Under the pieces are notes generated by a model. The model did no database searches. It saw only the letters and a list, made by a program, of their open reading frames with translations, and was not told where the DNA came from. 53,846 nt of DNA, taken from NCBI GenBank assembly GCA_008632985.1, contig QPGO01000331.1, positions 1 through 53,846 of the forward strand, read 5' to 3'. This DNA is from Psammoneis japonica. Taxonomy: Eukaryota. Shown here piece by piece: positions 6,287 to 41,700 of this stretch (position 1 is the first letter of the stretch; each line of letters opens with the position of its first letter). The position numbers and the translations under genes were made by a program.

Positions 6287-7534
6287 TCAATCGATCTCAT
6301 CCATGATTCCTTCTTTGTTTGTTTCAGACTCATCGCCGTCAGGTAGCGATGCAGTGATGTGCAAAAACGTTGCCACGTTCTTGGACGCAAATTCACATAC
6401 TTCGCACCCATGCTGCACCGTTATAGTGCCACCGCGATCTTTAAGTCTGTATCGATTCATGTCAATTTCCTCGACGACGATTATCATCTTTCTATCGTTC
6501 CGAAGAAGAGTGATAAGTTCACGGAGCGCGCTTCTGTTGTACGGGCCAAAAATGTGAACACTTGATTTCTTGTCTTGGCGAAGCAGTTTCTTCATTGTCT
6601 GAGACAACGCCACTAGATCAGAAAACAAATAGGCACAGTCACTAGCAACGACGGTGTCATAACTGGCCTCATAGCTACCAACAACGGCCGTCCTCCTTCC
6701 CTTTTCGGCGAAATCGTGCCAATTCAGTTTCCTCACATGCAAACGAGGTCCTACTACCCTCCCGTACGATTGACGAACTCGACCAATATTGTCTCTGCAC
6801 TGATTAATGACTTCTGCCTTGTAGTCTGTCATTGTAAATGACTTCATTTCTGGTGGACGATGAATGTGACTCATGATCCCGCCAAATCCAACCCCGCTCC
6901 CTAGTTCGATTACGTCACCAAAGAGCAATTCTGGATGCATAGAGAAGAACATGGCCATAACAATAGAGCTTTCCCATGTTGTAGAACCTGTACCCGCACT
7001 CCCTAGAACACCGTGATCAATTTCTTTGAGTTCAAACGACAGCATGGGATCACCCAGTCGCGCGAGGTCTTCTTTTTCACACCGGGGATGAATTGGTGTT
7101 ACTGAAGGCACGTTTTTTCTCAAAACAAAGCGTTTTGAGGCTCGCTCCAGGTCGTAATGCTCCTCTACAGCGAAAGGATTCCTTATCGAGTGACGGATCG
7201 AAGAAGACACGTCGAGCTCATAGTATGTTCTCGTCACTCCGTCACGCGATATGCAAAACGTATCGCCTTCGAGAAGCAATGGTGGCGGGGACAAAAAAGA
7301 AACGGCAACATTTTGTTGCTCTACCAAGGGCGTTAGTATTTCGTTCGAGGTGCTTGGACGACATTGGAAAAAATCTTCGCTGTTTCTAACAGGACGGGAT
7401 TGCGGGTATCGCGTCGGTGCTGATGTCACGTGAGCATTGACTGCTTGCTGGCTAAACACCCCCGACAAGGTCTGAAGACTCCGAGATCTTGATGTAGACG
7501 ATGCCATTGCCGCTCTGAACTTTGGTGTGGGCAT
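6287..7534 (-). CDS. Class I SAM-dependent protein-lysine methyltransferase, METTL21/Methyltransf_16 family
   Basis: Motifs GTGSTTWESSIVMA, VIELGSGVGFGG, MTDY, KLNW, YDTVVASDCAY. Start uncertain; the ORF is open to 7690. Confidence 0.85.
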   Translation of the reverse strand: MPTPKFRAAMASSTSRSRSLQTLSGVFSQQAVNAHVTSAPTRYPQSRPVRNSEDFFQCRPSTSNEILTPLVEQQNVAVSFLSPPPLLLEGDTFCISRDGVTRTYYELDVSSSIRHSIRNPFAVEEHYDLERASKRFVLRKNVPSVTPIHPRCEKEDLARLGDPMLSFELKEIDHGVLGSAGTGSTTWESSIVMAMFFSMHPELLFGDVIELGSGVGFGGIMSHIHRPPEMKSFTMTDYKAEVINQCRDNIGRVRQSYGRVVGPRLHVRKLNWHDFAEKGRRTAVVGSYEASYDTVVASDCAYLFSDLVALSQTMKKLLRQDKKSSVHIFGPYNRSALRELITLLRNDRKMIIVVEEIDMNRYRLKDRGGTITVQHGCEVCEFASKNVATFLHITASLPDGDESETNKEGIMDEID

Positions 7535-7724
7535 CAGAACATGCTTTCGGACAGTAACACCTAACACCGAATGAATCCAGATTTGAAAACAAGACCAGCC
7601 CAGGAAGTGAGTCCGTAGGGCCCTACAGTAATCATCATCATCACAGAAGATCCGTGTCAACAACATTGACGTCATCACGAACTCGTGCATACTCTACAGT
7701 CTACAGTCTTCTCTCTAGAGACTA

Positions 7725-10700
7725 CCGCTGGCCTCAAACGTTCCCGGCGTCCGTGACTGAAATTTCACCACGATGAAGTACGTGAGTCGAGTGAGTCGAT
7801 TGGACTCAAACGTTCCCGATTTGGCATAAAAAACGGCATGTTGCACTTTGATGTGTCTCGACATGGCAAACTTCGTTGGGTCGACGTATCTTTCTTGGGG
7901 GATCTTTTTCTATTGTTGTTATAAAGAGGTTGATGCATTGGTTTGGTTTCCGGGGGGGCTTCCGTTGCAACACACGGTGTGAACAGTTGCGTGCCTCGAC
8001 TCGTGACTCGATTGCGTCGCGGTGCGGGCTACATCTGAATGGTCGACAACGTCACAGAGGTAAGTTCTTTCTTTGTTTTCTCATTTTACACCAATTGCAT
8101 GCTCACCAAAGATGTTGTTTGCGCTTTGTTAAAGCTTCGCAGGTGGATTGATCGTCTCGTGCCGTCGATTGTTGCATCTGTGATGTTGGCGTTTTTTTCG
8201 AGGCGTTTGCACCACCACAGCGCATCCGTTTGGGAGCCTTGTGCCTCGTCCCACTCTACATCCTTTGGTGCACCTGTCATGCACATCAACATGGATTTGT
8301 GATGCGCTTGACATCCTTCTTGGGGGCTTGGTCGGCGCACAATCATGGCATGTCGTTTTTCGGCCGTCACAATGTTTGGAAAGTGCATGCCGTGGGAACA
8401 AAATGACGCAATGGAGCCTGGAGGACATTTGTGACAGTGGCATTTGTCAGACAGTCTTGTCACAGTCCACAAAAGGTTCGGAGGCAAAGATCGCACTCTT
8501 CTTGGGAGACTTGCCGTTTGATGGCAGACATGGCGGATTCAAAATCAGGGCAACGCAGAGTTTTCTGGCCAATGACACCGGAGACCACGAATCCCTTCAG
8601 CATCTTCTTCCATTGCGATGACTGAGTCAGGATTGACAGAAGTTTGGTGAGCAAGTTGACGATTGCATCCTTGTCCTTTCCAAGCTGAAGGGGAGTCTTT
8701 TCCAGGGCTCTTGCAGCCTCCAACTTGTTTGCATGAGCATGGGCGTCTAACTCTGTGGTTGTGGCTTGTTTCTTCAGGACAGATTTCGCAGCACTGAAGA
8801 CATCAGCTTGATTGCAAGATGCTTCCGATCCGGTCCTTGCAGGGTTGGTCTTGCTGGAGGTCATCTTCTCTTCATCATCAATTTTTGTCGCTTCTGGGGA
8901 AACCGTGTTTGCATCAATTTGTCCACGGTCACCATCCATGACAAGAATGCTGCGCTCGTCTTCAGTGGGTGCTTGGTCCAAGGCACCCATGCAGCCTCGC
9001 AACTTGTGATGCTGTCTCTGCACACAAGGCAAATGGACAAACTTGCGATGCATCACTGTGTGCTTGAGCTCAGCTTTGTCAACGTCGTCCCTCATGAACA
9101 GGACAAAGCCGACACCAGCATCAACGTTCGCATCACCTCCTGGACACAGCCCGTGCACATCCACTGAATGTGCACCATCCTTGTTGCCATGCGCATCTTT
9201 CGTGTGTCCTTTTGGGAGCTGACGTTTCGTCATCTTCTTGAACGTCAACATGACTGGCACGGCTTCTCCAGAAGCAACCATTGTGACGGCAAGTTTTGCT
9301 CTGAGGCACTCAAATGATGGATCTTTGCCTTTCTCACACTTTGAGTGATTTCCTGCGTCTGCGTTGTCTTTGGCAGCAACAACGCGCCACTCTAAAGGGT
9401 CTCCAGGTTGGGGGCCTTTCATGACAGCAAGCCCAGTGTCGTCCATTCCCATGTTGAGGGATGTGCTCGTCGGATGTGCTTTGTTTCCACGACATGTTTC
9501 AACAAGGTCAAGAAAGGTTTTTGCACCTGCAGTCAGGTTGGAGACCACGTTTTCAAAGGCTTTGTCCTCCCCATCAACAAGCGTTGCATCGGCGCATGGA
9601 ATGACCAAGGTTGTGGTGGCTCGCAAGGAGCGTTCGGCCGTGATGCGATTGTCGGTCTTGCGCTGCATCGTCTTGGTCATTGACAATTCACTGTTCTTCC
9701 CCAGAGCCAACCCGCGATGCCTCTTGGCTTCTCTTGTGGACACAGCCGTGTTTTCCGCCATTGGAACGACACCGCGCTCTGTCATTTTGGTGCATTTGTG
9801 ATCTGCCAAAGCTGTCTTCATTTCATCAAGCCCGAATGACTCACCGTCGTTTTGAACTGACTTCTTGCCAATCACTTGAATCTCATTGTTTGAGGCAACT
9901 GGTGTGTTTCCCCTGGCATGCCACTCTGTGTGCATGGGGTTGCCACTCGAGCAACTTTGAATTGTTTTGTTGCCAGCTCGTTGCACAGTGAAGGGAACCA
10001 GCGAGTGTTCCATTGTGCAAAATCAATGGCTTTGGTGCGATCTTGTTTGGGAATCATCAAAGCCATGTCAGCAAATTCCATCTTGCTGTGCATTTGTGTT
10101 TCCTTGTTTGCAGGCACGCAGAAGTTTGCACGAAGATGATGCGGTGGCTCAAGCAGTTGCGGTCTCTTGTTCACAGCATGTGCCCCTGGTTTTGGTGGCT
10201 GGTTTTCTTTGTCGTTTGCACTTCGGCACACGTCCTCTGGCACGGCGAGGGAATTGGATGGACGTTTCGGACCGGCGGCTCTTGATTCTTGCAATCGGCC
10301 CATGCTCACATTCTCTTGCATTCACTTCTGGCGGGCTTTTTCACTGTTCAAACGATTGTGGACGCACTGAACATTGGGGAGTTGAGCGGCACGAGCTGCT
10401 GTCACGGTTGCTCCTTTTGTCATCGCTTGCGAAATGGAAAGGCTGTTTTCGACAACTTTGAGCTTGCTGACGACTTCTTTCAACTTCTGCTGTGATGCTT
10501 TCTTCCCACTGTTCAATGTGTTCTGGACCTCTTTCAACACATTTTGCTGGTGTTGCATGTCCGAAGCGACAGCAGAACTGTCAAGAAGACCGTCGAATGC
10601 ATTGTCCATTTGGGATTTTTGCATCAACGCAGCGGCATTTTCTTCTGCATCCTTGAGCAATGAAGCAGCAGACAAAGCACACAGATGACTCATGGTTTGT

Positions 10701-10873
10701 CACTGTTCTTTGTGGTGTTCATTGGAGCTGCGACTGCATTTGAAACAACAGCAGCACGGTCATTGCAGCGTTGGCGTTGACCCGTCGCGTCAGAGGGAAT
10801 TCAAATCTTGCGTGCATCATCCTTCGCGTGCGGCGGGAACGTTTGAGGCAACGGGGACGTTTGAGGCCACCGG
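7725..10873 (-). mobile_element. Tc1/mariner-pogo-like DNA transposon, TA-erased relic
   Basis: 22-bp TIRs: CCGCTGGCCTCAAACGTTCCCG (7725-7746) and CGGGGACGTTTGAGGCCACCGG (10852-10873). Subterminal copies at 7801-7818 and 10834-10850. Flanked by TA (7723-7724) and CA (10874-10875). Contains a DDE-like ORF. Confidence 0.85.
8086..10693 (-). pseudogene. Degenerate DDE_1/pogo-like transposase
   Basis: ORF 8460-10013 has LNMGMDDTGL (cf. NMDETG), SILVMDGDRGQ (cf. LLILDGHxSH) and NPARTGSEASCNQADVF (cf. PxxxTxxxQPxDxxxF). Broken into several frames; no Tyr in 517 aa. Confidence 0.7.
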
Positions 10874-11315
10874 CAGTCTTCGGGAATGTTAAAACAGAAA
10901 TGACCCTGACATGCCACTGTCAAAAAACTCTGTTCTGATGTTCCAAAGTGCCAGAAGTGCTTCCCAGCAGAAAAACCTGCCAGAGCTGCGTCCCTCCGGG
11001 TTGGCACTTCCAGAAAATTGGAACAGCCTGTTCCAACATTCCCGGAGTGCCTCATGATGCCATTTGTCTTTTCTGCACATGTTCTGCACAGAGTGCATGC
11101 CAGCGTTTTAAGATCCCATGCGCCACCACAAGACTCCTTCCCGGGACTCGTGAGATTTGTGTCATCAAAGTTTCTGCCGCTCGCACCATTCCTGTCACAA
11201 CAATCAACCCACAATCTGAGTCCGACAAACAGCAACAGTTCATTTCATCGCTGTCTCCTGACAATGTCAACAACACAACATGCCAGGGGGGTGAACTGGA
11301 AGGCACAGTGGATGC

Positions 11316-14180
11316 GTGCACCCCCATCAGCGTGAAACTGATGATGATGCGCCAATCCTTGGGGGCGACTTGTCAGCACCTGGCGACCTCGCCGAAAAGT
11401 GCAATGAAACTGCCCAGTTGGAAATGGGAGACAAATGCCGACAAACCCATTGTCAGAGACTTGCACGTTTGGCCAAGTTTTGGAAGGAGAATGACCCTGA
11501 ATGTCATTCTGTTGGCGTTGGAGAGGTTTCTGCTGAAGACCTTTGCGATCCAACTGAGCACTGCTTCAATCGGCACCGAGAAGACCTTGTGCATGCAGGC
11601 ATGAACGACCAGTTTGCATTGCATTTCTCAGCGTCAAACAAGAAGAAGGCCAGTGGAAAGCTCAAGTTGTGTGAAGACATCCAAAAACACAAAGACGCCA
11701 CAATGTGGGGTGCCAAGACGGCAGACGAGCGCTTGCCTGAGAGCTTCCGTGCAATGTTTGATGAGTTCCTCACCGGGTGCAAGAAGGAACATGCTCAAGC
11801 AAGAAAGAGAGGGAATGCAGATGAAAACTCTGCTGATCCTGTTCCCGTTTCCTTGCACAAGCTCATGCTGGAATGGAGCGTGGAAGCCAACAACGTGTTT
11901 GTGTGGTTCTGGACCATTGCCCAGTGGAATTTCATGGCCAGGTCAACATCCACAGATTCCTCACGGATGAAGAATTTCAAACTGAGCATGGACAGCTTGA
12001 CTGGAAAGCATGCAGAAGCAAAGGCCGACAAGTCTGGAGAGAGGCTTTCAGAGAAAAATGTGTGTGCCAACCCACTGGATTGGACGATGTGCTTTTGGAC
12101 GGGCGCGGGTGTTCATTGTGCTCTTTGTGGCGATGAGTTTGTTGGCAACGATGCTCTCTTTTTGGACAAAGGTGTGAAGGAAGGAATGTGCACCACCAAG
12201 CATTGTGAGCAGATTGCTGGAATTTTGCAGGCCCGCTTGGACAAAATCATGAATCACATGGATCCAAGTCGCGTGAATCCGTGTGGCACTCGAAAGGGCT
12301 CGGGGACCCATGCCTTGAATGGGACCACTTCACCCCCGTCAATTCCAGCTGTTGCACGTCGTGGAGAGTGGACTGTCGGGAGTGTCCTTGATTGCCATTG
12401 ACATTTTGGCAGCATTGGCGACCAACATCTTGGACGCATTCTTGCGGTTTGGATCCAAACGATGCATCATTTGACATGCTTCCACCTCATTGGAAGCTTG
12501 CAGATCCGACATCAAATGAAAAAGTGAAACTTGGCATGATGAAAACATTTGGTGAGAATGTGACAAATGAGCACAAGACTTTTGTTCCCACTCTGCTGCG
12601 GTGCTTTGCATGTGTGGTGCATCGTCCCGACTCGCTGATTGAAGTTGTGGTGAGCGTGCCGGGTCATGACTTTTCGAAGCTGTCAATCCTCCATGAAAGG
12701 AGATTTTTGGGGGAGCTGCAATCTCTTGTGACAACAGAGCCTGCAGAAGGGGCATTGACTGTCCCCACTGGGATGCCACCCCATGTCGGCATGGCAAGAC
12801 AACTGTGCGAGTTGACACGCAAAGCCGATTTGATGCTCGCGAATGTGGATTCGCAGACGGAGACGTTGGTGGCGGCAGTGTTGGATGCAACAGATCAAAA
12901 AGCATGGGATTCTGGACATGTGACAAGTGATCGTCTGAAAGGGATGTTCAAAAGTTTTCAGGAGGAGACAATGCAAATGATGCATTCTGAGTTGGATGGT
13001 TTCAAGACTGTTTTGTGGTCCTTCCCTGCGGGCGGCAGCAACATGTGCACAAACGGCCGCATTGGCGCGGCTTCTGATGATGGTCCAGTGGAAACCACCT
13101 TTTGCTGTGACAACAAAACACACATGGTTCCAAAGCAATTTCGTCTTCCATCGGGAACAACAATCAAGGAAGGCCTGAGATTTTGGCTTTCTGGCCAAAC
13201 CGCATCAGCTGATGGTGCAAAGGTTGGACCTTTTTGAGACCTTGTGCCTTCCTCTCTCCCACCAGAGGCAAGGAAGGTTTGTTCTGTTCAGTGGAGTCCT
13301 GTCTTTCGCTTTGTTGAGAATGCACTGTCAGAGCAAGATGAGTCGCTTGGCGCCGACTCGGATTTTGATGACTTGCACGAAAAGTGTGTCGCGTGCTTGA
13401 AGGAGCATGTGCTTGAAGGAGCATGCCTCGCATTGCTTTGCCAAAGGAGATCCCATGGGGTGGAGCCTTGGAACTTGGAGCAACAGGGTGAGTCATTCAA
13501 TGACACCAAAAAGTGGAGCCGAGTCGGACAAAGGATTTTTGAAAGCTGGTGCGAACCGAAACAAACCTCGGCACGCTGCAACTTGAAAGCATGGTCCTCA
13601 CAATGCGAAACATCCAGGTCGCCAATGCAGACGCCTTGAGAATGAAAGCGTGGCAGAATCAAGAGTGGGAGAAGAGGATGCCTTTGCCAAAGCTTTCAGT
13701 GGTGCAGAGGACAGAATGACAGATCCCATGCGTGAGCGAGACGAAGAAATCAGAGCTGAAGCAGAGCGGGAAATGGCGGCAGAACAAGCTCAGCAACAGA
13801 AAGAGCGTGCCCAAACTGGTGATGGAGTGGGCACTGATGGTGCTCTTCTTTGTGCCCATCAGACGAATGGCGTTGAACGGAATTGTGGCAACGACTCGTT
13901 TTCGGCACGAGTGTCGCATGGCAAAAAAGTTGGTCATGCGATTGACTCCGATTCTGCTGGTGCTGGTGTTGGCATGGGCAAGGCGGGGACCAAACCAACT
14001 CAACCTGGTGTGTGTCCAATTGTTGGATGTACTTGCTTTCGCACCGTTCCTGATCACAAGTGCAAAAACAAGAGCTGCAACAAGTGCGTCCACTGCTTGT
14101 GTGCGCAACGTTGCAGCTTGACGAGTGCAAGCAATGAACTGAGCGTGCATTGTTCAATTGCATGCAAAGGCAGTGATTGG
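11316..14180 (+). pseudogene. Crypton (stramenopile-type) tyrosine-recombinase transposon relic with C-terminal Cys-rich zinc-finger-like region
   Basis: Motifs QWNFMARS, KADKSGE...EKNVCANP, NPCGTRKGSGTHA (cf. HSxRKG), RRGEWTVGSVLDCH*HFGSIGDQHLGRIL, GLDP..ASFDMLPPHW and HMVPKQFRLP...WLSG...GPF, typical of oomycete/diatom Cryptons. Disrupted by TGA stops at 12399 and 13235, a frameshift near 12447 and a 16-bp tandem duplication at 13393-13424. Confidence 0.8.
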
Positions 14181-14464
14181 ACGTTTTGTCATCAGTCAGC
14201 ACAGTGTCATCATTGCATTTTACTTTTGCAAGAGCAACCGAAGAAGTGGTCCAAGAGGTGCAGCGAGCGGCCCACTCTTGCGCAGGTGGTGAAGCCAACG
14301 GTGATGGTGAGGGGAACGACAGTGAAATTGGACACGCCACTCCATCTTATGATCAGCGGCACTGGACAGTTTAGTTAAAAGTGTTCAGCATTGTCAAAAA
14401 TGCTTTGATCGTTCACTCTGTTGTCAATGCGCCTGCCCAACTTGTGCCAGTTCTGAGAGTGTTT

Positions 14465-15175
14465 TTTGGACAAAACAGAAATCCACAATTCTCAACAACA
14501 CACAACGAGACCAACCCAGCAGGATGCATTGTGCAATTGCTCCCAACATTGAAAAAGAAACAGAGAAATCGGTGCAAGCATCATTGAGACATCATGTCGT
14601 AAAGTGGGACACCGGCACGGCGGCACGCATCATTGTGCTGCTGCAGTTTCTTGCGTGTAACTTTGAAACACATGTTCAACGATGTGTGTCGGCAATGCCA
14701 GCAATGAACTTGTTCATTCTGTTGTTGTAATTTTTGGTTTAGACATCTTTAAAAAACATTTGACAATGACATCACAAAAGAATCACAGTCAACGGAAATT
14801 AACGCCAATCGCATCAGACGCTTGTTGCGCGATTTTGCGGCCCGCATGTGGGCCGCAAAAATCTCATCGCAAATTTTTGCGGCCCGCATGTGGGTCGCAA
14901 ATTCTTAAAATGACGCTTGTCTCGGAATGCGCACGCAAAACTTGCATCGCCGACATCCATCGTTGCACACGTGCATTTCTCAGTGGCACGCAACAAACTG
15001 CAGCAGCACAATGGTGCCCACCGCCGGTCTCCCACTTTACGGTGTGATGTCTCAATGATCCTCACACCGATTTCCCCGTTTCTTTCATCAATGTTGGGAG
15101 GGAATGCACAATGCATCTAAATGGGTTGGCCCCATCTTCTGTCATTGAGAATTGTGGATTTCTGTTTTGTTCGAA
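14465..15175. repeat. Long imperfect inverted repeat (arms ~14465-14700 and ~14945-15175)
   Basis: ACAAAACAGAAATCCACAATTCTCAA (~14470) is mirrored at ~15146-15171. TCATTGAGACATCA, GTAAAGTGGGA and CATTGTGCTGCTGCAGTTT are all mirrored in the right arm. Confidence 0.85.
14831..14903. repeat. Two tandem GC-rich palindromes TTTTGCGGCCC-GCATGT-GGGCCGCAAAA
   Basis: Copies at 14831-14863 and 14874-14903, between the arms of the long inverted repeat. A half-site occurs at 16083-16093. Confidence 0.9.
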
Positions 15176-16096
15176 ACCACACAGAATTTTCAAATTTGGA
15201 AAAGCACAAAATGACGGAATGAGCACCAATTTACAAACACTGCACAAACAGTTGTTCTTTTGTGACATGCCAAAACAGACAAAACATGGTTGTGCGGAAT
15301 GTGGTTTCCAATGGCAGTTGCTTGGCTGCTGATCTAGTCTAGTTCCTCAACCGTGATGACAGATTGCCGCGCCAGCTTTTTTGTGGAGTCAACAGAGCGG
15401 CTGTTGCTGACACGCATTCAGCAACAATGAGCTGCGGATCTCGTGCCTCAACTGTGATGCAATGAATTGCAGACATGCCAGCTTTGAAAGGAGCAAACAC
15501 TTTCTTTCAATCTCTGCCAATGCCAACTTGTGTCCTCCTGCAACAGTTCCGTCGCCGCGGCGCCTGACCTCTCCTTTGTCTGCGCCCATCATGTTTTCTT
15601 GATGCTTTCCCAAATTGATCACATGGGCATGGGCAATGACCTTGAATCGTGCTCGAGCTCTCTTGGCCATTGGCAACTCCACAGGAAGACTTGGAGGGGG
15701 GGCATGCACGGGTGCAGATGGTGCTTCGGCAGTGGACTGCGACACCGGATTTCGCGGCATGTCTTGAACAGGCGAAAAAGGCATGTCCGTTCCCGCTGCA
15801 AGCAATGCTGACACATCTGGCACTTCTCTGACGATGTTGTCAGGCGTCCGAGATTGCTGGAGTGAACATCCTTCACTGGTGTGGCCCGCCGCAGGGTCCG
15901 CCATGGTGGAGGGAGAAATCGGCGAAAAAGTGCGCGAAAATGCGCGCACATTTTAGAGGCTACGACAACAACCACTGGGACTTTTTTGACAGATGAAGTG
16001 TCGATTCCTGTGTTTTCGGGCATGGAGAATTCGACTGTGGGGTCAATTCATCGATTGTCTGTGTCATTGAAGATTTGAAAAAATTTGCGGCCCATG

Positions 16097-16414
16097 CTGC
16101 AAATTGCAAAACAATTGCGCGATGCACGTGCCCGAAGGTCGAATGTCGTTGCCCGAAGCAACATTCCTCCTTCGCGCAGATGTCCATTCTACATGGTGTG
16201 TGGTGTTGAAAATCTCGCTGTAGTCGCATGAGTCGTTGAAGTAATTTCATCAATGACCTCTGTTTTGCTGTGCTGCGTGATCTACACAAATCGGACATTC
16301 TCGAATGCTGGTATATTTTCTACGGTCTCTACGTGCGCGAAGCTCGAATTTCGTGCCCGAAGCAACAATCACCCTTCGGGCACGTGTGTCGCGCAATTGT
16401 TCAGCAATTCGCAG
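16097..16414. repeat. ~42-bp inverted repeat, possibly the subterminal structure of an unclassified element
   Basis: 16111-16138 ACAATTGCGCGATGCACGTGCCCGAAGG versus 16373-16400 CCTTCGGGCACGTGTGTCGCGCAATTGT. The direct repeat GCCCGAAGCAACA also occurs at ~16151 and ~16355. Confidence 0.8.
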
Positions 16415-20662: not shown

Positions 20663-20999
20663 TTTGATGGCACAACTGCTGGCAAAACGATGAAGTCCAA
20701 ATCCGGTGGGTTTCAGGTTTTAACAGTGACCCCAGCTATTGTAGTCAGGTTTGAACCCTGTCGATCATATCGTCAATTTTCTGCGAACGGTGGTGCCCCG
20801 GGGCGGCCAGTTCATTGCATCAAGCTAGAGAAGTAACAAAGTGCTCAGTCAGTTATGATGTCGAATGTCGCCCATGGCGTGCCGCACTGTACTGCCGGCG
20901 CGGCGCAATCTTGAAGAGTCTGTCCTCGAGAGCTACCGGGCACCGTACCGGCAGCAGCGAGGAGGAGTGTCGTTGAAGGCATTTCAAAGACTCATTACC

Positions 21000-22701
21000 C
21001 TTTCGAAGACGCGGCGGCGGGTGCCACCGGTGTTGTTGAAACACAGGCTGCTTGAGCCTGTGGTTGAAAGGGCTGACCTTCGCTGCGGAAAAATGTTGGC
21101 TCTGCTTTTGGTCATTCTTGTGAAGAGCCAAGAGAAGCCCAGCGCCAATGTGTTTCTTCATTCTGCAGCAGCAGGAGGCAAGCAGCACAGAGAGGGACAA
21201 ACGAGAGTGACAGCTGTGCCAAAGCGTGCAAGTGGTTCGAAACAAGAAGAAAGCCTCACCTCGGGGAGCCCCCCACCAGTTTTCCTGATGCCCTGCCAGC
21301 CAGCCAGCCAGCCAAGGGCAGCCAGGACAAAGAGCACCTCTCTCACACATGAGCGCTGCTGCTGGTGGGCCGACCTCAAGCGGGAGACGTGTGGCGCTGC
21401 CACTGCACGACCACCCCCTCTGTGCTGCCACAGCGGCTGGCACAGTGCGCTGCCTGCCCTTCTGCCACCTGCCGCTGGTCAAAACATGCAGCAATTTTTC
21501 AAGGCCAAAGCCAAGGATCTGCGTTGGAGAACATGAGACAAGGTCACAATGTGGGATTTTGCTGGCCTGCCCAAGTTTCAAGTTCAAGGTCAGTTTGGGC
21601 ACAGAGCTCACAAGGAGAGCTGGTGCTGGCACCAAGCATGCAGCGCACCTGCCACATGGGAGCGCGGCACTCCACCAGCAGCTCTTGACTTTCCCTGCGC
21701 AGCCCTTGTGCAAACACGCGCCACCCAAAGAGCAAGACTGCATTGCCGAGCAAAAGATCACTCCGCCAGGCTCCACAGGTGCCTCCCCACTTCTCAAAAC
21801 TGTCAGAAGCTTTCCAACACATGCTGCGCCAGATTCCCAAACACAGCCAGGCAGTGGTCAAAACATGCGCTCCAGCATGCCGGACAATCTCAAAACATGC
21901 ATGAAGCCCAGGGCACACATTCTTTCTGCGTGCAAGAGCTTTCCCCAGTGTGAACAGTTGCTGTGATGCTGCTGGTCATGGAACAGGGCAGAGTTGCTGC
22001 GCACACTGCTGCCCACCTCCAGCGCAGTGGGCGCCCCAAGTTTTCATCATCTGACTGCCCCAGCGAACCCAACAAGGCCCCAGTCCTGTGACGTGCTGGC
22101 TCCAGCTTCCAAAAGATGCTGCCGCAGATGTGGTGCTTGCCGCTTTCAGAAATCTGCAAGGAATGCCAAGGCCCAAGACTTTCAACCAACCTTGAGATGG
22201 CTGGCAGCAGCAGCACATGTGTGCACACTCTGCTGCAGACAATTTTGACGTGCAGGAAAACCAAACTCATTTTGACTGTGTTCACAGTTTGGGGACAATG
22301 TGCTGGCAACCAAAAGCTTGCCAGCGAGGTGACACCTCTTGCACACAAAACTCACTCAATGCTGCCTTTTTTGTCTTGCTTGGGCAACTTTCATGTGGAG
22401 GCCACCAAGCTTTGGCACTTGCAGGGCCCTGCCACCTGGGCTGTCCTCTTGCACAGCCAAATTGCTGCGCACTGCGCACCATCATCTGACGTGGCATGGC
22501 TGGCTGCCCTTGGTGACAAGCCTTCGCTGCTCGCACCCAGGAAAACGGTGCGGCCATCTGCAGCGAGGTCAACAGCTCAGAAGGCTTGTCAGCCACACGC
22601 CCTTGGACCCATGCCACCCTGTGCGAAAGAGCCACTGGCTGCCATGCGTTGCGCCTTTTGCAATGGCATGGTGTCCTCTGTGACGCAGCAATGATGGGGA
22701 G

Positions 22702-22757
<56 letters not shown>

Positions 22758-23340
22758 NNNNNNNNNNNNNNNNNNNNNNNNNNNNNNNNNNNNNNNNNNN
22801 NNNNNNNNNNNNNNNNNNNNNNNNNNNNNNNNNNNNNNNNNNNNNNNNNNNNNNNNNNNNNNNNNNNNNNNNNNNNNNNNNNNNNNNNNNNNNNNNNNNN
22901 NNNNNNNNNNNNNNNNNNNNNNNNNNNNNNNNNNNNNNNNNNNNNNNNNNNNNNNNNNNNNNNNNNNNNNNNNNNNNNNNNNNGTGTGTGTGTTCTTGCC
23001 CTCTCTGGAGCAGAAAATGGAGCACCCCCTTTCAAGAAGAGACCCACATCAAGTTTTGCTTGGTGGTCTTGGGCACAAACTTTGCATGGTTGGAGTTCCC
23101 ATCAAAGGTCCTGTGAGCATCATTTTTTTGTGAGAGGGCAAGGGCCTTTTTTTGTTGGGAACACTTCAAGGGGACCAAACAAATGGAGCTTTGTAAAACA
23201 ACCTGCACTCTTGCATTCGCCGTGGTTGTTCTCTCAGTGCAAAAAGGAGTCTCAGAGGGGCTGCACCTGGCCTCTGAGGGAGCTGATGAGGGGCTCGCAT
23301 TTTGAGCTTGTTGCCTCACTCACTTGTTGGTTGCACTGCA
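21000..23340. other. TpA-free island with no recognisable coding relic
   Basis: No TA seen in 21000-22757 and one in 22984-23340 (manual scan). Rich in TG/CA; contains a (CCAG)n tract at ~21296-21313. Confidence 0.85.
22708..22992. repeat. (TG)n microsatellite spanning an assembly gap (N 22758-22983)
   Basis: GT repeats on both sides of the N run. Confidence 0.95.
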
Positions 23341-33249: not shown

Positions 33250-35882
33250 TCATTCGTGCCGGTAAAGCAACTTCAAATTGATATCTTCATTGTTCGACAA
33301 CTTATCCGCGTAGACACCAAGAGCCCCCCATGGCTCCTCGTACCCCGTTGTGATGGAATAATGGGGCTGGCGGTTTGATAGTCTTGGGCGTACTTGCGCA
33401 GGAAGTCTAGTTGATGCAAGTGCTGTCTTGGACACGTCTGGCAGGTTTGTTGTAGCAACCATCATATTGCGATCGACGTCCGTAAATCGGAATGCCCCAT
33501 GATCAGCGGTGTCAGCCTAGTTCCAAAATCCAGGAAAGATGTTCAATAATCAAACATACATGTGGTCAATCGAAAATCACACTTCACTTACTGCTAAAAT
33601 AAGAGCATCCCCGTGGTCTGGTGAAAACTTTTGTTTCAATAAAGTCGATTCGTCAAAGGGCGGCAGCCATCCTGGGTTATACCTGGTAAGCATGTAACTG
33701 TGTCCGAGAACGTCGTTTACAGCCATGCCTAACGCACACGGACCACAGAGGAGTAAATCGAACCCTGATCTCGGCTTCCAGACCTCCATGTCATCTTCCG
33801 TGGCTGAATGGCAGATGTCGCGTTCAATGTCGTATATATCCGCACGATTCAGAACGAATGTCAATACCCGCTCAACAACTCGAACCAAAAATATGTGACC
33901 TGGCATCGAACCCATAAACCCGTTCCACAAGCAAAAATTTTCGTCTGCATAGTCCGCGACTACGTCAAGAGGCGCAAAGAATGACATGTCCGGTGTAATG
34001 AATGTATCAAGGTTTGCATCCAGTTTCACGTCAACGTCGGCGTAGACACCTCCATCTCTTAAGAGCACTAGATATCGGAAAAAGTCAGCCTGCATAAATG
34101 AGAAAAATGTACGTGCATCAGCATGTTCGAGGAGGGAATTTTGAGGGAAGAAGCGGTACAAACGAGCATGCATACCTTGTATGCTCCTGGAACCAAAGCA
34201 TCGAAAGCATCAACAAATCGCTTCGGGTAATGCTTCACAATGTAGTCCCGGGCGCTCTGATCGGTGTAGAACCTGTATTCCCATCCAGAAGTCTTCCACG
34301 TGTTCTGCAACCGCGCAAGATCGGGGTATCGGTCGGACGTGATTTCATCCCACCACGTCTGATGGACAATTCTTGGTATTCTTCCATGTCGTCGGATTCC
34401 ATCATCGATAGCTTTTTGTGCCGGCGGTCTTGAAACTGAAACCTCTACTGTCACTTCTTTCCTTTTACTGTTTATAGGTGAAACGCAAAAGAATTCCTTC
34501 ATGTTTCTTGGACAAGGCAGCTTACACGCCGAAAAAGATCCGTAATAAGGAGCTCGAAGACATCGCGTACAAAGCCAACTAGGAATAACGCCGAGGCGTT
34601 TCATGACTTCCTTCGTTGGGGTCTTGAGTTCTTTAACTGGCTCAGGTGTGTTCTTCGCTTCTTCAATAGTCACTGTCATCTTTGACTGCTGCTGTGGCAG
34701 AGCCTGACCGGCATTTGTGGTAGAGTCAGCAAGACTATTTTCAATCGTCACGTAAATGCTGTCCCCTTTATGTAGTAGAGTCGTAGATCCTTGACTTTCT
34801 AATTTGTTTCTGCTGTCCGTGTCAAGAATTGTGGAAAGCAATTCCGCGGGAGAGGTCGTGTTCTGTAGTCCCTTAATATCGTACATCAAAGACTTCACAT
34901 ATGAATGGCGAGGAGAAACCGCAAACAGACAAAAGTCCAGATTGTCCTTGCCCGTTTTGGTTTGGTTTGAAGCTAGTTGCGAAGTGGACTGCGCGAATAC
35001 CACCGCACCTCGAGCCATACATGGTTTGCTCTCTTCAAGCAAGATGTGGCTGAGTTGTTCATCTTCCGTATCAGAGACATGAGTAAGATCTCGGACATGG
35101 TCTGCGACAAAATAGCCTCCAAACTGATACAGGCTGCAAAGAGCCCAGATATAGATTCTATCTGAGTTTGAGGCGGATCTGTAGGCTTCCTCAAGACTTC
35201 TACAGAAGTGCAAAATCGTCCTCCGCATATCTTCCTTATCAAAGAGAATCACATTACCAGATGCCCCTCGGATTGGCTTGATCCACTCTGTAGGCTGGAG
35301 AATCACGTTCGGGATTCTGGAAGGAAGTTTCAGCACAGGCCCCGAGTTGCGCGTGTTGTTGCGCCAGAGTGAGCACGATTCCTCCCACTCGCTAGCTTGG
35401 TATGTTAGATTATGCAGTGAATTTTCTCTTTGAGCAGCTTTTGTGAGTGTCTGTACTAGTGCCCCGTTTGAGAGACTATGAGTCGGCATCTGAATCCCCA
35501 ACGACTGCAATCGTGACTGTCGTTGTAGCAGCGTTTCGTCATAAACGCGAGAACGAACTTTCGAGTCCACATATAATCCAAACCGTCCACCTCGAAAGGA
35601 ATAAGGGGATCCAAATATTGTCCGATGATAAGACCAGTATAAGCCAAGTACGAGAACGCAGAGGCAACAGAAAGCGCGCTGGCGTTGCTTTCGAGAAGAA
35701 CAGAAGCGAGATAACCGAATAAGCAAAAAATGAGACAGACCACTGAATGACTTCCAATGTTGCTTCGATTCCTTCTCCGTTTGAACCGTCAGGTCGAGCT
35801 TTTGGAACGGAAAAGACACACCGCCTCGAAAACGTGGAGACATATCACAGTTGTTGCTTGCAACCGCGCCTCGTTTTTTCAT
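33250..35882 (-). CDS. GT32 DXD glycosyltransferase (OCH1-like mannosyltransferase), paralog A
   Basis: N-terminal TM anchor; RIPRIVHQTWW and GAYK|ADFFRYLVLLRDGGVYADVD. Introns 34090-34175 and 33517-33591. Degenerate second GT32-like module in the N-terminal half. Confidence 0.9.
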
Positions 35883-36106
35883 CTCATCGTCCTGCTGTGC
35901 TTTTTTTGTTTTCCGTTTGTTGTTCCGTCGGCGCGGTCGCGTCGCTCTCGCTCGGCGGTGTAGGGCCTACTGTACGGTATGTGTTCTGTGGTTAGACTCT
36001 AGTGTGACGTGTGACGGTGGAGCATATTACTTTTATACGGATTTAAAGATCGAAATATTTTAACGGTGCGAACTCTATCGTTTCAAAAAATGCTGTTTAC
36101 AGCGCA

Positions 36107-36292
36107 GTGCCAGCACATGATGCAACATCATGCCTTCAGCAACGCTGTCATTTTTCGCCCATTGTGGTGCCATGCGATGGTCTGATTGGCAAGGAGGCTC
36201 AAGCCGCCCTACGTCAGCTAGCGGGAAAGATTTCTAACAAGTGGCAGAAAAGCCCTGTTTGGAAGTGTGTGGCTTCTTGTCAACGCAAGTGA
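36107..36292 (+). mobile_element. 3' fragment of a CRE-like non-LTR retrotransposon (C-terminal restriction-like endonuclease region)
   Basis: CLQQRCHFSPIVVPCDGLIGKEAQAALRQLAGKISNKWQK resembles the CxxxxxHFTPFVxSxDGLLGxEAxxxLxxLAxxLxxKW tail of such elements. Confidence 0.6.
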
Positions 36293-37499
36293 GATTCAGC
36301 ATGAGGACTCAACAAACACAGCACTGATGCAGGCCACACTCTTGTGATGCACAAGCATCCAGGACACCAGCCAAATGTGCTGCAGTCAAGCAGCCTCAAA
36401 TGGTCATGTGTGGCACATCATGCCAGTGCCACAGCAGCAAAGTCAAGTGAGCAATGACACACCACAGAATTGAGCTCGTCCTGTGTTGCACCCAAGAATG
36501 ATGGAACATTTTTGTGGTGCATGACTTTTTTTTAAGTGCGGCTTGTTTGAAAAATGACTGGTGGCAAATCCAGGGAAAAGCTCTAAAAGTTGCACTCACA
36601 TGCATTTCAGCAAAAGTCAACCTGGGCTCTAAACCTCCTCATTGTGTGTCCAAAGTTTTTCTGCCACAGAGGAGGGGCCAACAAATGGTTTTGCTCAAAT
36701 GTTGCCATGATTTTTTGGGTGCAGCACAGGATGTGCTGCAAAGAACAAGAGAGGGGACAACCCCCCATCAAAAGCATGAGTTCAGGCATGCAGCAGATGG
36801 GCTGGTCTCTGCTGAAAAACCCAACAGGGAGGTTGTTGGCAGTGATGAGAGATTCTCAAAAGCAACAACAACAACCAGCCCGGTGGCAGCATTGCATGTC
36901 ATCGTGGTCAACAAACCCTTTTGTTGGATTTCAGTTGACTCCATCTCACAATGAGCATCACACCAAGTCTTCTTCATCTGAGGCAGCAGCAGAGACTTTT
37001 TTGTGAGTTGAATGCCCGCCTGTCTTCACGCCAGGAGTTTTTGACACTTGGATGAGTTCAAGTGTCAATTTCCCCCATCAGAAGCCCAGACACGGGCCTC
37101 CACACAATCCAGTGCAAAGTCCATCCATGTTCTTAGTGTGTGCCACACCACATGCATGGCAACATGCTCTCTCATGAGCAGATTGCTGCTTTGTGCTGGA
37201 GCTTTCGTGCACCTTGACACACAGACTTGCAGATCCTTGGTTGAGCAGCTGTGCCTCTGTTCTCTTTGAGATCTTCATGAACATGGAACATTTTGATGAC
37301 AGCAGGAGCATGCATCACATGTCAAATCAACAAAAAAAGACCAGATCCATGTTTTGAGTGCTGTCGCTCCTTTGCCACCAGCTGGGCTGGCGCCAGCTGA
37401 CCCACACTTCCAGCACACCATTGATTGTGGCAGAAGCTCATGGGGATCAGCCAGAATGGACATCACCTCACAGTGACGCCCCACTGAAATAACCAGCAA

Positions 37500-40400
37500 C
37501 AGAGCAAGTGTCACAAAGCATGGAGTTCTTCATTTTCTTGAGGCTTTGCATGGTTTTGCCACAGCAACGCAGTTCATTGTCCATGAGGTGGAGTGGGACA
37601 TGTGATCTTCCACTGAGTTCAGCAGCACATCTCTGTCTTTGGCAAGGTGCTCCTGTTTTTTGTTGCACGTTGCCGTGAGTTTGGCTTCCACTTGTTTGCA
37701 CTGAGATGATTTCCTGGTGTCTGCATCACATGACCATGCACCTCTTTGTCATGCTCTTCCCACAACTCCCACCAGGATTTCCAAGTGCAGGCTCCAATTT
37801 GCACTGCCCAAATGGGAGGTGAGTGATTCTCCTTGTGACACTTTTCCAGCAGTCCTGTGCTGCAAAGATGCATTTCTTGAAAAGTGCTCCAAAGAGTGGA
37901 AAAATGATGGTTGAAAACTTGATGCCAACCCATGTCAGACTGGGCTCTCCACAAAGGACGCAACATTGGGGCAATGTTGTCATTGCATGTCATCTCTCAC
38001 CTTGAAACCATGCTTCAATGGAGGACAAAATAAGATCACACAATGGGGACATTGTGTTGATGTTGTTGCAGAGCTCAAGGAGGCCTTGTGGGAATTTGCA
38101 ATGCCAGGTTTCATTGTCAGGGCAGCACAAAATGCAACCCTGATCTTCCCTGGGATGTTCGCAAGAAAGGTGATGATGTGGTCTCACTGGATTGCAATGG
38201 TGAGTGATCTTGTTTGCAGGAACAAGAAGCTCATGGATCAATTTGACAGCAGACACATGTTGCTTTGAGAACTGGTGCACCAATGCAGTGTGCATGGACC
38301 AGTCTGTTTTGTCTGTGATTGATTCATCCCATTTGTTCCTTTCCTGAATGTGCACCCAAGCAGAGCAGGAGCTGCGCCAGTGTGTCAAACCGCAGATTTG
38401 AGCCCTGTGGCAATGGCCCTGTCTTGAACACTCAGGTGGGATTGGCAATGGGGGAGGGGGATCACCTTGATTGTGTCAGATTTGCACTGACCTTGATGTC
38501 ATCATGTCAGTGTGTTGGCATGCATGTTGATCTGAGCACCAAGAGGGAGAACTCGACTGGAGAGTGTCTGTCCTGATGTCCTTTCACCCACTCAAGAGCA
38601 GGAGCCTGGGCTGGAGAAAAAGGATTGAGGATTTTTCAATGGCTTGGAAGGTCTGACAAATCTTGTTGATGATGTCCCAATCAGATGACAAGATGTTGGC
38701 ACCATGCTTGCACAGTTTAAAATCTGTCTGGGGGGTGGAGACTTGAGCTGAAGGATCAACAGAAGGACTGCTGTCAGACAATCAGGAGAGAACTTGAACA
38801 AGAGCCCTGTTGTCACACCAGTTGTCAACACCTTTGTAAGATGACATTTTGCAAAATTCAAGCAGACAAAAAACAGAGCGTGTCAGGGACATGAACCCAC
38901 AGGCCTCTGCTTGGCACAAAGAAGGCATTCTGTCAAACACCAGTCTGGCACAATCCACCAATGTTCTCCCATCAAATGCAATGGTCCACCCAAATGTTGC
39001 TTTCTGTAGATGCACAGACCCATTGCTGCCTGTCACAAGGCAATTTGATGCAAAGCAATCCACCAGTTTGAGCGGGGAAAAACATGGAATTCCATGTCAG
39101 AGGACAGGGCAGACTCCCAGGAAGGCAATGCTTGCAGACAGTCTTTAAAGAACTTGGGGAGAGGAGGAGGTGTTTCCACTGTCAATTTTGACCAATGAGG
39201 AAGACATTGGCACTGTCCATTGCAGGTGGAGATGATCTCCACTGGGCAAGATGAGTCAGAAGGATCAGGAACCATTTCAATTTGATGCCGGGATGTTGCC
39301 ACTGTGTCCTGGGCCAGAAACACATCAAAACTGGATGGAGACCATGCATGCAAATGTGATTCCTTTGGAGACCAACAGGCAGAGGCCTGCATGTGCATCT
39401 TGGAAGGAGGCACTGACCAATCTCCCAGAGGGGCTCATGGTCTGGTGGAGTCTGGATGACACAACAATTCACACAGGCATGTCCAGGGACCCCATGCTGG
39501 ATGACAAGGTTTTGTTCATTCAATGTTGTCAACAGTGCTGACACTGCTCAGGCAAGTTGGATCACTGCAGACCTTAAACTTGTCCAGAAAGCATCCATCT
39601 GCCATGGCAATGTCCAACACAGTGAGAACCCTGAGACACAGACAGCAATGGTTGATCCACTAAATCTCTCGGGACAAGAATTCTGAAGACTCCAGAGCAA
39701 CATGTCCACCAAGAACTGGTCGTCATCTCATTGCAGAGGTGGCACCCCATCTTCGTGTCAAATCAACAAAGACATGGACACCCACAAAACAGCCTTCTTG
39801 TGCCTCCATTGGGCATTTGCTGCTGGCAGGAAACCAAGATTGAGCAAGCTCCTCAGCACAAGTCAACTCACACTGGAGCTTTTGGCTGGCCACATTTTCA
39901 GCCATCACCAGCTGCTTCTGTCAATGTCACAATGGTTCTTTGGTGCTGCTCACAAGCAATCTGGCACAGTTGTGAGCAGGCACTCATCTCTCAACTGGTG
40001 TTTCTATCAAGGAAGGCTGGGGGCAAGCCCTTGCTGGCCAAATGCCTTGCTTGAGATCCTGTTCTCAACAGCTGCTGCAGCTGAAAATGGGCTGTTTTTG
40101 AGGAAGGATTTTTCAGGTGAGCAAAAGGTTCAAGAAGCATTGCTTGCTCATGATTTTGCAAGACAGCAGAGCCAAAAGATGGTTGGCTCAAGGTGCAAAT
40201 TTGGTGGTGCTGCAGAAATTGTGGCTTCCATTTTTTTGCAAGGGCTGGACAAGGTTGAGAGTGTGCCTTGAGACACCATTTTCTGGTGTGTGCACATTTG
40301 AATTTTTGCAGGGCGTGCTCTCACAACAAGTTTCGAGCTGTGTTTGGAGACATTGGGCTTGAGCACAAAATGACCAAAAGCAACACAGAGGTGCTGCTGG

Positions 40401-41700
40401 GCTGTGTTGTTCAACATGAGTGACCTGGAAAGTTCTTGGTTGGTTGGCCAGGAGGAGTGGGCTGTTGGTGTTTCTTGACCAAGAAATGATCATGACCAAG
40501 GCAAATGGATTTCTGCATCAAAAAAAAGGAGGAAAACAGAGAGGCACCACTTTGAAGATTTGTTGGAAGTCACGTGAGATCACACCTCTTGCACTCACTG
40601 GTGTGCATGGGGGCATGCCAAGTGTGCTGTCTCACAACTGTTGCCACAATTCTGTCTTGGTGTCTTGGCCGCACCTTCTGCATGTTTTTCTGTTCAAGCT
40701 CTGGCACAAATGTTGCCTTTCTCTGACAGTGTGACAATGGTTCTCACCTGCCCATTTTGACTGCTTCTCTCATTGACATGCCTTCATTTCATCATCACAA
40801 GCAATCTCATGCATTGGAAAGTGACTGACATTGAGCTCTTTTGGCTTGTTTGCTTGTCATTCTTCTCCACTCTTCTTGGTGTTTTCTTCCTTGTGTGCCA
40901 AGTTATTTTGCAAATTCTGCGTACTTCAAAAGTCATTTCAGATGGTCAACTTGGCAAACTTTTGGCTGCGTTCCATCCACACCTCTCAGGTGTCAATGAC
41001 CCCCCTTCTGCCTGTTGTCAATTTAAGTTCCCTGCTTCACATGGCAGACAAAAATCTTCCATCATTGCTGCACTCAGAAATTTTGAATGTGAAAGAACCA
41101 GTTCAGCATGCACTGACCTTTCTTCCATGTGCCAACAACTTTGCACAAGTTTTGGTGCATGTTCTGTGTGTCTCAAAATTAATTTCAAACAATTGACTTG
41201 CCAAACTGTTGACTGCTCTTTGTCCACACCTCTCAGGTGTCAATGACTCCCCCTCTGCATGCTATCAGTTTAAGTTTTCTGCCGCCCCCCATGTGGCAAA
41301 TGAGAATCCTCAATCATTGCTGCTCCAAAAAGTCTGAATTTGAGGCTGGCTCAGCATGTGTTGGTGGTTGCTTCATGCCCCACTCTTTCTCATTTTGAAA
41401 CATTTCCTGACTGTCTGTTTCACCTTGGCAGCCAAATCTGATCCCAAGAAGAGAGCCTTGATTGCAGCATCAAGTTTTGACATCTCATTCATTTTGCTGG
41501 TCCTCTTTTTGCTGCTGCCAGCTGTTTCCAGTGGGTGCCACAGATTTGCAGTGTCAATCTTGGCCAGCTGCCATGCACCTCTGCCACATTGTGTTGGTGT
41601 GCAAGGGGTTTGGGTTGGCTTGTTGTGTTGCCAGAGTTGCAGGGTGGAAGCACAGCAGCACTGCAAGAGCAGATGGCTTTGGTGTTGAGTTCAATTTTTG
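37500..41700 (-). mobile_element. Degenerate diatom LINE (Ambal-like) with RNase H and zinc-knuckle C-terminus
   Basis: RNase H relic LVTGSNGSV..ATFGWTIA...PSLCQAEACG...WCDNRALV (38782-39063). Also SSDWDIINKI, HLSCEHPREDQGCILCCP, QSDMGWHQVF and WINHCCLCLRVLTVLDIAMADG (39591-39668). Many stops; boundaries approximate. Confidence 0.75.
40977..41358. repeat. ~135-bp imperfect direct repeat
   Basis: CCACACCTCTCAGGTGTCAATGAC...TTTAAGTT...ATCATTGCTGC...TCAGCATG at ~40977-41110 and ~41224-41358. Confidence 0.8.

Follow-up and report, generated by a model that had tools for sequence, protein, structure and literature searches.

A transposon flanked by TA and CA at the edge of a TpA-depleted block suggests hypermutation after insertion in the diatom Psammoneis japonica

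Can the two ends of a single transposon reveal that a mutational process acted on chromosomal DNA after the transposon had inserted? The question is raised by a 53,846-nt stretch of the diatom Psammoneis japonica (GenBank assembly GCA_008632985.1, contig QPGO01000331.1, positions 1 to 53,846 of the forward strand; hereafter the window), in which an element with terminal inverted repeats (TIRs) lies between a methyltransferase gene and repeat-rich DNA that is nearly free of the dinucleotide TpA. The element is flanked by TA on the side of the gene and by CA on the other side. A previous interpretation made from the letters of the DNA (the sequence-only reading) had proposed a Tc1/mariner/pogo element whose right target-site duplication (TSD) was TA at insertion and became CA afterwards in the chromosome, which would argue against editing of an RNA or cDNA intermediate. 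Having followed up this proposal computationally, we consider the full history, i.e., a TA-duplicating insertion followed by mutation of a whole block that took the right-hand TA to CA, to be the probable one.

The evidence that carries this history is the distribution of TpA. Three blocks of the window are largely devoid of it (Table 1), with observed/expected (o/e) ratios of 0.00–0.17 for TpA and of 1.5–1.9 for TG+CA, the latter compared to ~1.1 in genic DNA. Block 1 begins inside the element and retains four TAs, compared with 350 predicted from base composition and 214 if the genic o/e (0.61) applied, the latter corresponding to a survival of 1.9%; the longest TA-free gap measures 2921 bp (P ~1e-55 at the genic rate). 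When we applied the TpA-depletion thresholds of a preprint on the chlorarachniophyte Bigelowiella natans (Mettrop et al., bioRxiv 10.64898/2026.01.13.699255), 19 of the 52 N-free 1-kb intervals passed, and these form three groups (8001–12001 with 14001–15001; 21001; 36001–46001). Regions of recognisable host genes show a TA o/e of 0.4–0.9 (~0.5 around the methyltransferase gene), and none of the 80 open reading frames (ORFs) in the blocks matches a Pfam family. With the transposon residing in block 1, mobile or foreign DNA is targeted and host genes are spared. The edges are abrupt: at block 1 a TA is kept at 8257 and a site at 8271 is converted, i.e., within 14 bp, and around block 3 TAs are dense until 36235 and again from 47514. 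Block 3 (TpA o/e 0.02–0.22) is additionally poor in CpG (o/e 0.02–0.34 over 36001–47000) and rich in TG+CA (o/e 1.7–1.95), and no ORF of 100 aa or more in its 11 kb carries a Pfam family. Beyond block 1, the zone 14030–16200 is partly depleted (TpA o/e 0.1–0.2), which may indicate a younger insertion or fewer rounds of mutation. This zone also holds a foldback of 713 bp (14464–15176), whose ~240-bp arms are 80% identical, together with a GC-rich double hairpin (14831–14904). Without TpA, neither TAA nor TAG can form, and many frames of both strands therefore stay open across the blocks; around the element all six frames are unusually open, 25 ORFs of 80 aa or more overlap 7000–11600, and ORF-based gene calls in the TpA-free DNA of 7000–16400 are unreliable.

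The TpA loss is due to mutation rather than to origin or selection. We compared the window with its other genomic copies, for which 40 of 406 differences were listed, and 29 of these 40 fall within 8258–10875. Twelve of the 29 places are TA in the other copies and CA (10) or TG (2) in the window, and at none does the window have the TA, so that no change in the reverse direction was found. A further 11 places are CG in the other copies and TG or CA in the window, accompanied by two of the reverse CG case and four other changes; TpA loss is therefore not the sole process in this copy. The reading frame of the relic transposase leads to the same direction of change. Its 517-residue core contains no Tyr, compared with 2.7% in its relatives, and at the two best-conserved Tyr columns (Tyr in 25 of 27 and 22 of 31 relatives) the window copy has His, while at three weaker ones (33–42% Tyr) it has Cys; these are the residues that TAY codons would be expected to yield when converted into CAY or TGY. 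Both the listed differences and the Tyr columns display T-to-C or A-to-G at TpA. An apparent strand bias of the conversions (10 CA vs 2 TG, p = 0.04) was dropped, since the Tyr columns split 3 vs 2 and, by raw count, CA is about as frequent as TG.

If the TpA-free state were an artefact of assembly or base-calling at modified bases, the true sequence would be TA. Every contig from the sequencing runs (run contigs) differs from the window at several of the listed places, e.g., 10678 and 10680, and the best run contains 0.48 of the window's sampled words, as such an artefact might produce. Yet a 230-nt run contig at near single-copy depth (41.7) is identical to the TA-free positions 9857–10086, the conserved Tyr columns have turned into clean His or Cys codons in an otherwise alignable ORF, and three separate blocks with sharp edges are present. 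We regard an artefact as extremely improbable.

The TAs that survive point to a sequence context. Throughout 18.8 kb of blocks, 38 TAs remain, among them 13 in TTAA, nine in CTAA and four in TTAG. The pattern YTAR accounts for 26 of these 38 survivors vs 251 of 1281 genic TAs (Fisher p = 2e-10), and TA survival is 0.17 in YTAR vs 0.019 in all other contexts, which suggests that the process would depend on a purine at position −2 or a pyrimidine at position +1 relative to the edited A. The original context of the right-hand dinucleotide, if it was a TA, would have been GTAG and thus of the erasable kind. Conversely, the 11 TAs in the leftmost part of the element (7725–8257) and the left TA (CTAC) stand in contexts in which a TA very rarely survives inside the blocks.

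The ends of the element are as the sequence-only reading had described them, with AGAC-TA-CCGCTGG... at 7719–7731 and ...CCACCGG-CA-GTCT at 10867–10879. A check of the sequence places the left TIR, CCGCTGGCCTCAAACGTTCCCG, immediately inside the TA, and the right TIR, CGGGGACGTTTGAGGCCACCGG (tail ...GGCCACCGG), immediately inside the CA; the flanks adjoining the dinucleotides read TCTCTAGAGAC on the left and GTCTTCGGGAATG on the right. The coordinates first given for the element, 7723–10875, take in both dinucleotides, and the element proper spans 7725–10873 (3149 bp). The two TIRs, each 22 nt long, are identical at all but two positions (20 of 22) and have a 16-nt core, CCGSTGGCCTCAAACGTYCCCG. 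The core motif GGCCTCAAACGTYCCCG was found four times with up to three mismatches, twice at each end (0.26 expected; none of 100 shuffles reached four). As in members of the IS630-Tc1-mariner group, TIRs are present, here with an inner motif copy at each end; where that group duplicates TA (or TAA/TAAA), this single locus has TA beside its left end and CA beside its right end.

Do the dinucleotides lie outside the element at all? A repeat search returned a single 28-nt inverted repeat (89%; 7719–7746 / 10852–10879) that continues through both dinucleotides into AGAC/GTCT, and four complementary flank bases would arise by chance in 1 of 256 cases. TA and CA could, then, be the outermost bases of a longer TIR (AGACTRCCG...), with the real duplication elsewhere or decayed; the CA would still derive from a TA through the block process, but at a position inside the element. 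Palindromic target sites around TA are, however, usual for the Tc1/mariner superfamily. Moreover, the outermost flanks (left ...CTCTAG, right TCGGGA...) contain no direct repeat of any length beyond AGAC/GTCT, and the TA at 7716–7717 would have to pair with the CG at 10881–10882, which would require two changes. We consider a longer TIR quite unlikely. Besides TA/CA, no direct repeat can be placed beside any plausible end of the element.

The empty-site motif AGACYRGTCT has no match elsewhere in the window (0.22 expected), a blastn search of the window with the element recovers only the element itself, and the search for further TIR elements inside the blocks that could be scored for TSDs yielded only weak 18–24-nt pairs and the foldback at 14464–15176, whose ends are indistinct. 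Among the 15 of 20 joints and 12 of 113 loose ends listed for the run contigs, none joins 7722 to 10876 and no loose end falls at the termini, a result without weight either way. Matches of the TIR core in metagenomes (at least 116 stretches) and viral sequences (23) were rejected as chance: blastn and tblastn of 139 loci gave two 31-nt matches only, and a 16-nt pattern is too short.

The class of the element determines what duplication to expect, and here conventional family searches gave little. The core ORF matched nothing in Pfam, PHROGs or a word-based protein search; with the family alignment, the word-based search produced one match, itself without a Pfam family, and a PDB sequence search with the family profile returned nothing meaningful. 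The upstream ORF pieces of the same gene have no Pfam match, helix-turn-helix (HTH) families included. An exhaustive HMMER search retrieved 129 relatives at 21–39% identity (42 at E ≤ 1e-10), one named member being a hypothetical protein of the diatom Seminavis robusta. Full-length relatives are ~1200 aa long, with members of up to ~1300 aa, and have a conserved C-terminal extension that is absent from the window copy, which is missing the C-terminal 400–500 aa of such relatives. Scanning 20 relatives revealed no transposase family of Pfam at E ≤ 0.01, and the core ORF has none either. The alignment of the family nevertheless contains invariant or near-invariant D/acidic columns at query positions 191/192, 360 and 401, with 40 residues between the last two. 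For pogo elements, the published description (PMC7386202) gives a DD29-56D triad, a length of 1.2–5.2 kb, a transposase of 300–977 aa, classical duplication of TA and presence in stramenopiles. By this measure, the element resembles pogo and Tc1/mariner in its short TIRs, single transposase gene, length, triad spacing, fold and the TA at its intact end, and differs in the ~1200 aa of its relatives, in the position of the first two catalytic residues 168 apart, and in lacking a match to Pfam DDE_1, DDE_3 or HTH.

More informative was the predicted structure. An AlphaFold2 model built on the family alignment (predicted local distance difference test, pLDDT, 81.0; predicted template modelling score, pTM, 0.75) was searched against the PDB using Foldseek, where all five matches at E ≤ 0.001 were to the mariner transposase Mos1 and the next ones to Sleeping Beauty and Metnase. 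With VIA-align, the top 11 rows were exclusively catalytic domains of Mos1, Metnase/SETMAR or Sleeping Beauty (Z 11.2–12.2; domain-only rows with a root-mean-square deviation (rmsd) of 3.2–3.5 Å over 192–200 of ~200 residues), and the next group, retroviral integrases, scored Z ≤ 8.7. The predicted fold is that of an RNase-H-like DDE/D catalytic domain of the Tc1/mariner type; the N-terminal helices of the model superpose on full-length Mos1 only at 8–9 Å rmsd. ESM Atlas features matched DDE_1 (pogo-type) clusters only (score 0.90, 159–162 shared features), and nothing reached 0.8 once these clusters were left out. The class proposed by the sequence-only reading is therefore supported by the modelled fold and the triad spacing, not by Pfam membership, and we treat the element as a degenerate, probable Tc1/mariner/pogo-type TIR transposon. 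A TA duplication is to be expected because of this type of catalytic fold. The copy in the window is dead to judge from its sequence: 42 of 97 strongly conserved columns are changed, the gene has an in-frame TGA and a frame change, and the Asn at the third catalytic Asp column (401) implies an inactive enzyme. A tblastn search of the window with the proteins of 151 relatives found this ORF only, plus one weak 71-aa match (12922–13128), and on viral contigs the core ORF gave three pattern matches and no relative.

Were the two flanks once a single site? The earlier distinction between a gene side and an island side holds: the Methyltransf_16 gene has its ATG at 7690, and the DNA on the right is repeated and nearly TA-free. 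Depth in the run contigs is 55–67 in the left flank, 147–322 in the right flank and 113–451 in the interior of the element. The single-copy left flank and the repeated right flank, with a depth close to that of the interior, would also be compatible with a rearrangement that brought together flanks of separate sites, by recombination between two copies, by a deletion, or by duplicating the element along with its right flank; the CA would then be native. The right flank opens with four ~24-nt units in alternating orientation (10872–11051; consensus ~GGCACTCCGGGAATGTTGGAACAG), which look like a small foldback or a structure similar to a miniature inverted-repeat transposable element (MITE), and 10918–11300 is repeated three- to sixfold in the run contigs. 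The other three units begin with GGCAC, and when a 2-nt gap is allowed, this aligns to the GG-CA of the junction, making GGCA alignable as native to the first unit. Without a gap, on the other hand, the similarity between units ends at CTYCGGGAATG (right-flank sequence GTCTTCGGG) and is silent on the CA, and all four flank bases are complementary, as a single palindromic target predicts. Flanks that were never partners are, in our judgement, unlikely.

The left part of the element behaves differently from its coding part. Over 7702–8505 the depth in run contigs rises to 1766–2766, placing the left ~780 bp of the element at 30–50 times single-copy depth, far above the coding part. In the smaller run the depth is zero across 8506–10113 and high on either side, which fits abundant deletion derivatives or a family of non-autonomous derivatives, and a weak joint from 8269 to 10132 in the run contigs, with one side of only 21 nt, hints at deletion derivatives ending at the same place. 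The edge of block 1 is compatible with a homology-bounded process, with gene conversion from unmutated short copies, or with a chromatin edge at the promoter.

It is the position of this edge that orders the events. Block 1 extends 3 kb or more beyond the right end of the element and has the TIR, the CA and the flank of that end deep within it; its left edge excludes the first 530 bp of the element, the TA before them and the gene. Insertion would have preceded mutation because the block offers almost no TA targets (4 in 5.8 kb) and is continuous across the right end. This order favours a change in chromosomal DNA after integration, as the sequence-only reading had it. The argument drawn earlier from the mismatched duplication against RNA or cDNA editing is sound but of little weight, given that transposition by cut-and-paste involves no RNA intermediate and that a single site is concerned; a stronger case is made by a block that takes in a portion of a DNA transposon along with its flank and more distant DNA, by the block edge inside the element, the extension beyond its right end and the precedent of de novo mutation in B. 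natans DNA. Ordinary background substitution in an old element would need no special process, and age is apparent in the two differences between the 22-nt TIRs, in the in-frame stop and frame change of the gene, and in the 42 of 97 altered columns. Against it, the site lies in a block with ~98% TpA loss and its change is exactly of the block's type; background substitution at ~9% divergence would produce one given T-to-C change with far lower probability than the block process would. We regard such a background change as very improbable.

Taken in order, the proposed history would run as follows. A cut-and-paste transposon of the Tc1/mariner/pogo type, already shortened internally to 3149 bp, would have inserted at a palindromic AGAC-TA-GTCT 33 bp upstream of the methyltransferase gene, at the edge of repeat-rich DNA, duplicating the TA. 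A process at the level of DNA would later have acted on ~8258 to ~14030, turning TpA into CpA or TpG (A-to-G on either strand). This would have removed ~98% of the block's TpA and turned the right-hand TA into CA, and the leftmost 530 bp of the element together with the left TA, outside the block, would have retained their TAs.

Besides the depth contrast, the gapped alignment of the first unit and the inverted repeat through the dinucleotides, several observations weigh against this history. The whole of it rests on a single site, and TA and CA share one of two letters, as unrelated dinucleotides do 44% of the time. None of 32 aligned family members matches Pfam DDE_1 (PF03184) or DDE_3 even at E ≤ 10. 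When all differences are totalled, C>T and G>A (177 places) barely outnumber T>C and A>G (160), and the listed differences are a part of that total. Most other copies of 8506–10875 are probably TpA-poor too, so the loss may partly be inherited from a mutated ancestor copy; at some places no run contig carries the window's own letter, and all run data come from one sample, which is possibly the source of the assembly. The edge of block 1 sits inside the high-copy segment, and its sharpness could reflect gene conversion or a mosaic of copies instead of the edge of a domain. Of the sequence-only reading, the change from TA to CA gains from the erased block and from the 12 places at which other copies have TA, while its assignment of the two dinucleotides to a TSD, and with it the timing after integration, is tied to this one locus.

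Table 1. Features of the element, its flanks and the TpA-depleted blocks, in window positions
Feature	Position	Strand	Basis or remark
Host gene, lysine methyltransferase, Pfam Methyltransf_16 (E 1.2e-14)	6287–7690	−	ATG at 7690, 33 bp from the left TA
Left flank AGAC	7719–7722		Complementary to the right flank GTCT
TA, putative left TSD copy	7723–7724		Intact, context CTAC; sequence
Left TIR, 22 nt	7725–7746	+	Repeat and motif search
Left element part keeping 11 TAs	7725–8257		TA positions; includes the erasable contexts GTAC, GTAT and CTAC
Inner terminal motif copy, GGACTCAAACGTTCCCG	7802–7818	+	Motif search
TpA-free block 1	8258–14029		Begins in the element, extends past its right end; 4 TAs left (8748, 9393, 10890, 11109), all YTAA
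Relic transposase core ORF, 517 aa	8460–10013	−	0 Tyr; Asn at third catalytic Asp column; predicted Tc1/mariner-like fold
Upstream ORF pieces, same gene	9872–10693	−	10693–10322, in-frame TGA, 10321–9872, frame change into core ORF
Inner terminal motif copy, right end	10834–10850	−	Motif search
Right TIR, 22 nt	10852–10873	−	Repeat and motif search
CA, putative right TSD copy after T-to-C	10874–10875		Presumed former TA, original context then GTAG
Right flank GTCT	10876–10879		Sequence
TpA-free block 2	20997–23193		No TA in 2198 bp; contains a 226-N run (22758–22983); dinucleotide counts
TpA-poor block 3	36236–47513		Also CpG-poor; dinucleotide counts

Among the neighbouring features, a conserved host gene in the window has its named relatives in the diatoms Attheya, Cylindrotheca and Nitzschia (best identity 65%). 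An ORF next to the element (11295–12398) has no Pfam or PDB match and may contain a tyrosine-recombinase-like motif. In DNA with normal TA content, a pair of direct repeats (33662–34604 / 48565–49501; 70% identity over ~950 bp) overlaps two long minus-strand ORFs, 34068–35882 and 48962–50842, which have no Pfam family and are probably paralogous genes.

Which known process do these blocks resemble? The closest is that of B. natans, where de novo DNA mutations were measured in mutation-accumulation lines. According to that preprint (10.64898/2026.01.13.699255), two integrated viral regions acquired mutations that are nearly all A-to-G or T-to-C and without exception on TpA, at a rate ~1000-fold over background; the genome contains clusters of TpA-depleted windows, TpA-poor coding sequences are enriched for DDE endonuclease and reverse transcriptase, and the authors propose that the enzyme is an ADAT2-like deaminase. 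The blocks described here share with this account the restriction to TpA, the products TpG and CpA, the sparing of host genes and a change at the level of DNA, and the process may be the same one. It may also be enzymatic, adenine deamination being the preprint's proposal and a thymine-based route the alternative chemistry. The two systems differ in lineage (a chlorarachniophyte, Rhizaria, vs a diatom, Stramenopila), in the degree of depletion (a TpA o/e of 0.45 in the insert from a nucleocytoplasmic large DNA virus (NCLDV) vs a near-saturated 0.00–0.17) and in the target (recognisable viral inserts there, transposon-rich repeats here). In the diatom, moreover, one block is CpG-depleted, edges are sharp (8257/8271) and YTAR is relatively refractory, and the process is known here from its end state.

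Two other systems provide instructive comparisons. Repeat-induced point mutation (RIP) of ascomycetes likewise introduces block-wise, near-saturating and dinucleotide-specific transitions into repeated or mobile DNA, with sharp edges and killed transposase genes. Its direction, in contrast, is the opposite one: RIP converts CpA into TpA and enriches TpA, whereas the diatom blocks lose TpA and gain CpA and TpG. The hallmark of RIP, C-to-T at CpA with an excess of TpA, was accordingly absent, with TpA o/e at 0.00–0.17 and TG+CA o/e at 1.5–1.9. ADAR hyper-editing and APOBEC activity also leave clusters of deaminase-type transitions in mobile elements, and ADAR prefers U before the edited A (10.64898/2026.01.13.699255, Discussion). 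The substrate of these enzymes is RNA, or cDNA in the course of reverse transcription, whereas here a DNA element, its flank and neighbouring sequence are affected in one block whose edge lies inside the element.

The one description to date of DNA-level hypermutation that strikes foreign DNA at TpA is the 2026 preprint on a chlorarachniophyte, and our full-text literature search returned no report of TpA-free hypermutation blocks in diatoms. What is new here are near-saturated TpA-erasing hypermutation blocks in a diatom, which gives the locus an interest beyond a single dinucleotide. Tentatively, and with somewhat less than even confidence, we propose that diatoms possess a RIP-like defence of opposite chemistry: a targeted DNA A-to-G mutator of TpA that would saturate transposon-rich blocks, stop within a few bases at edges next to genes, spare YTAR, remove every Tyr codon and every TAA or TAG stop, and be shared by at least two lineages (Rhizaria and Stramenopila) of the Stramenopila, Alveolata and Rhizaria (SAR) group. 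A transposon straddling an edge serves as a natural internal control, with one end and its TA untouched and the other end and its dinucleotide converted. If such a defence exists, the insertion of a TA-targeting transposon that spans a block edge could be dated against waves of mutation by a TA/CA or TA/TG mismatch between the two copies of its duplication. Should other copies confirm it, mismatched duplications would become a genome-wide assay of in-place chromosomal action, of its spread and of its timing relative to insertions, and the search for the enzyme would widen to a well-studied and genetically tractable group of algae.

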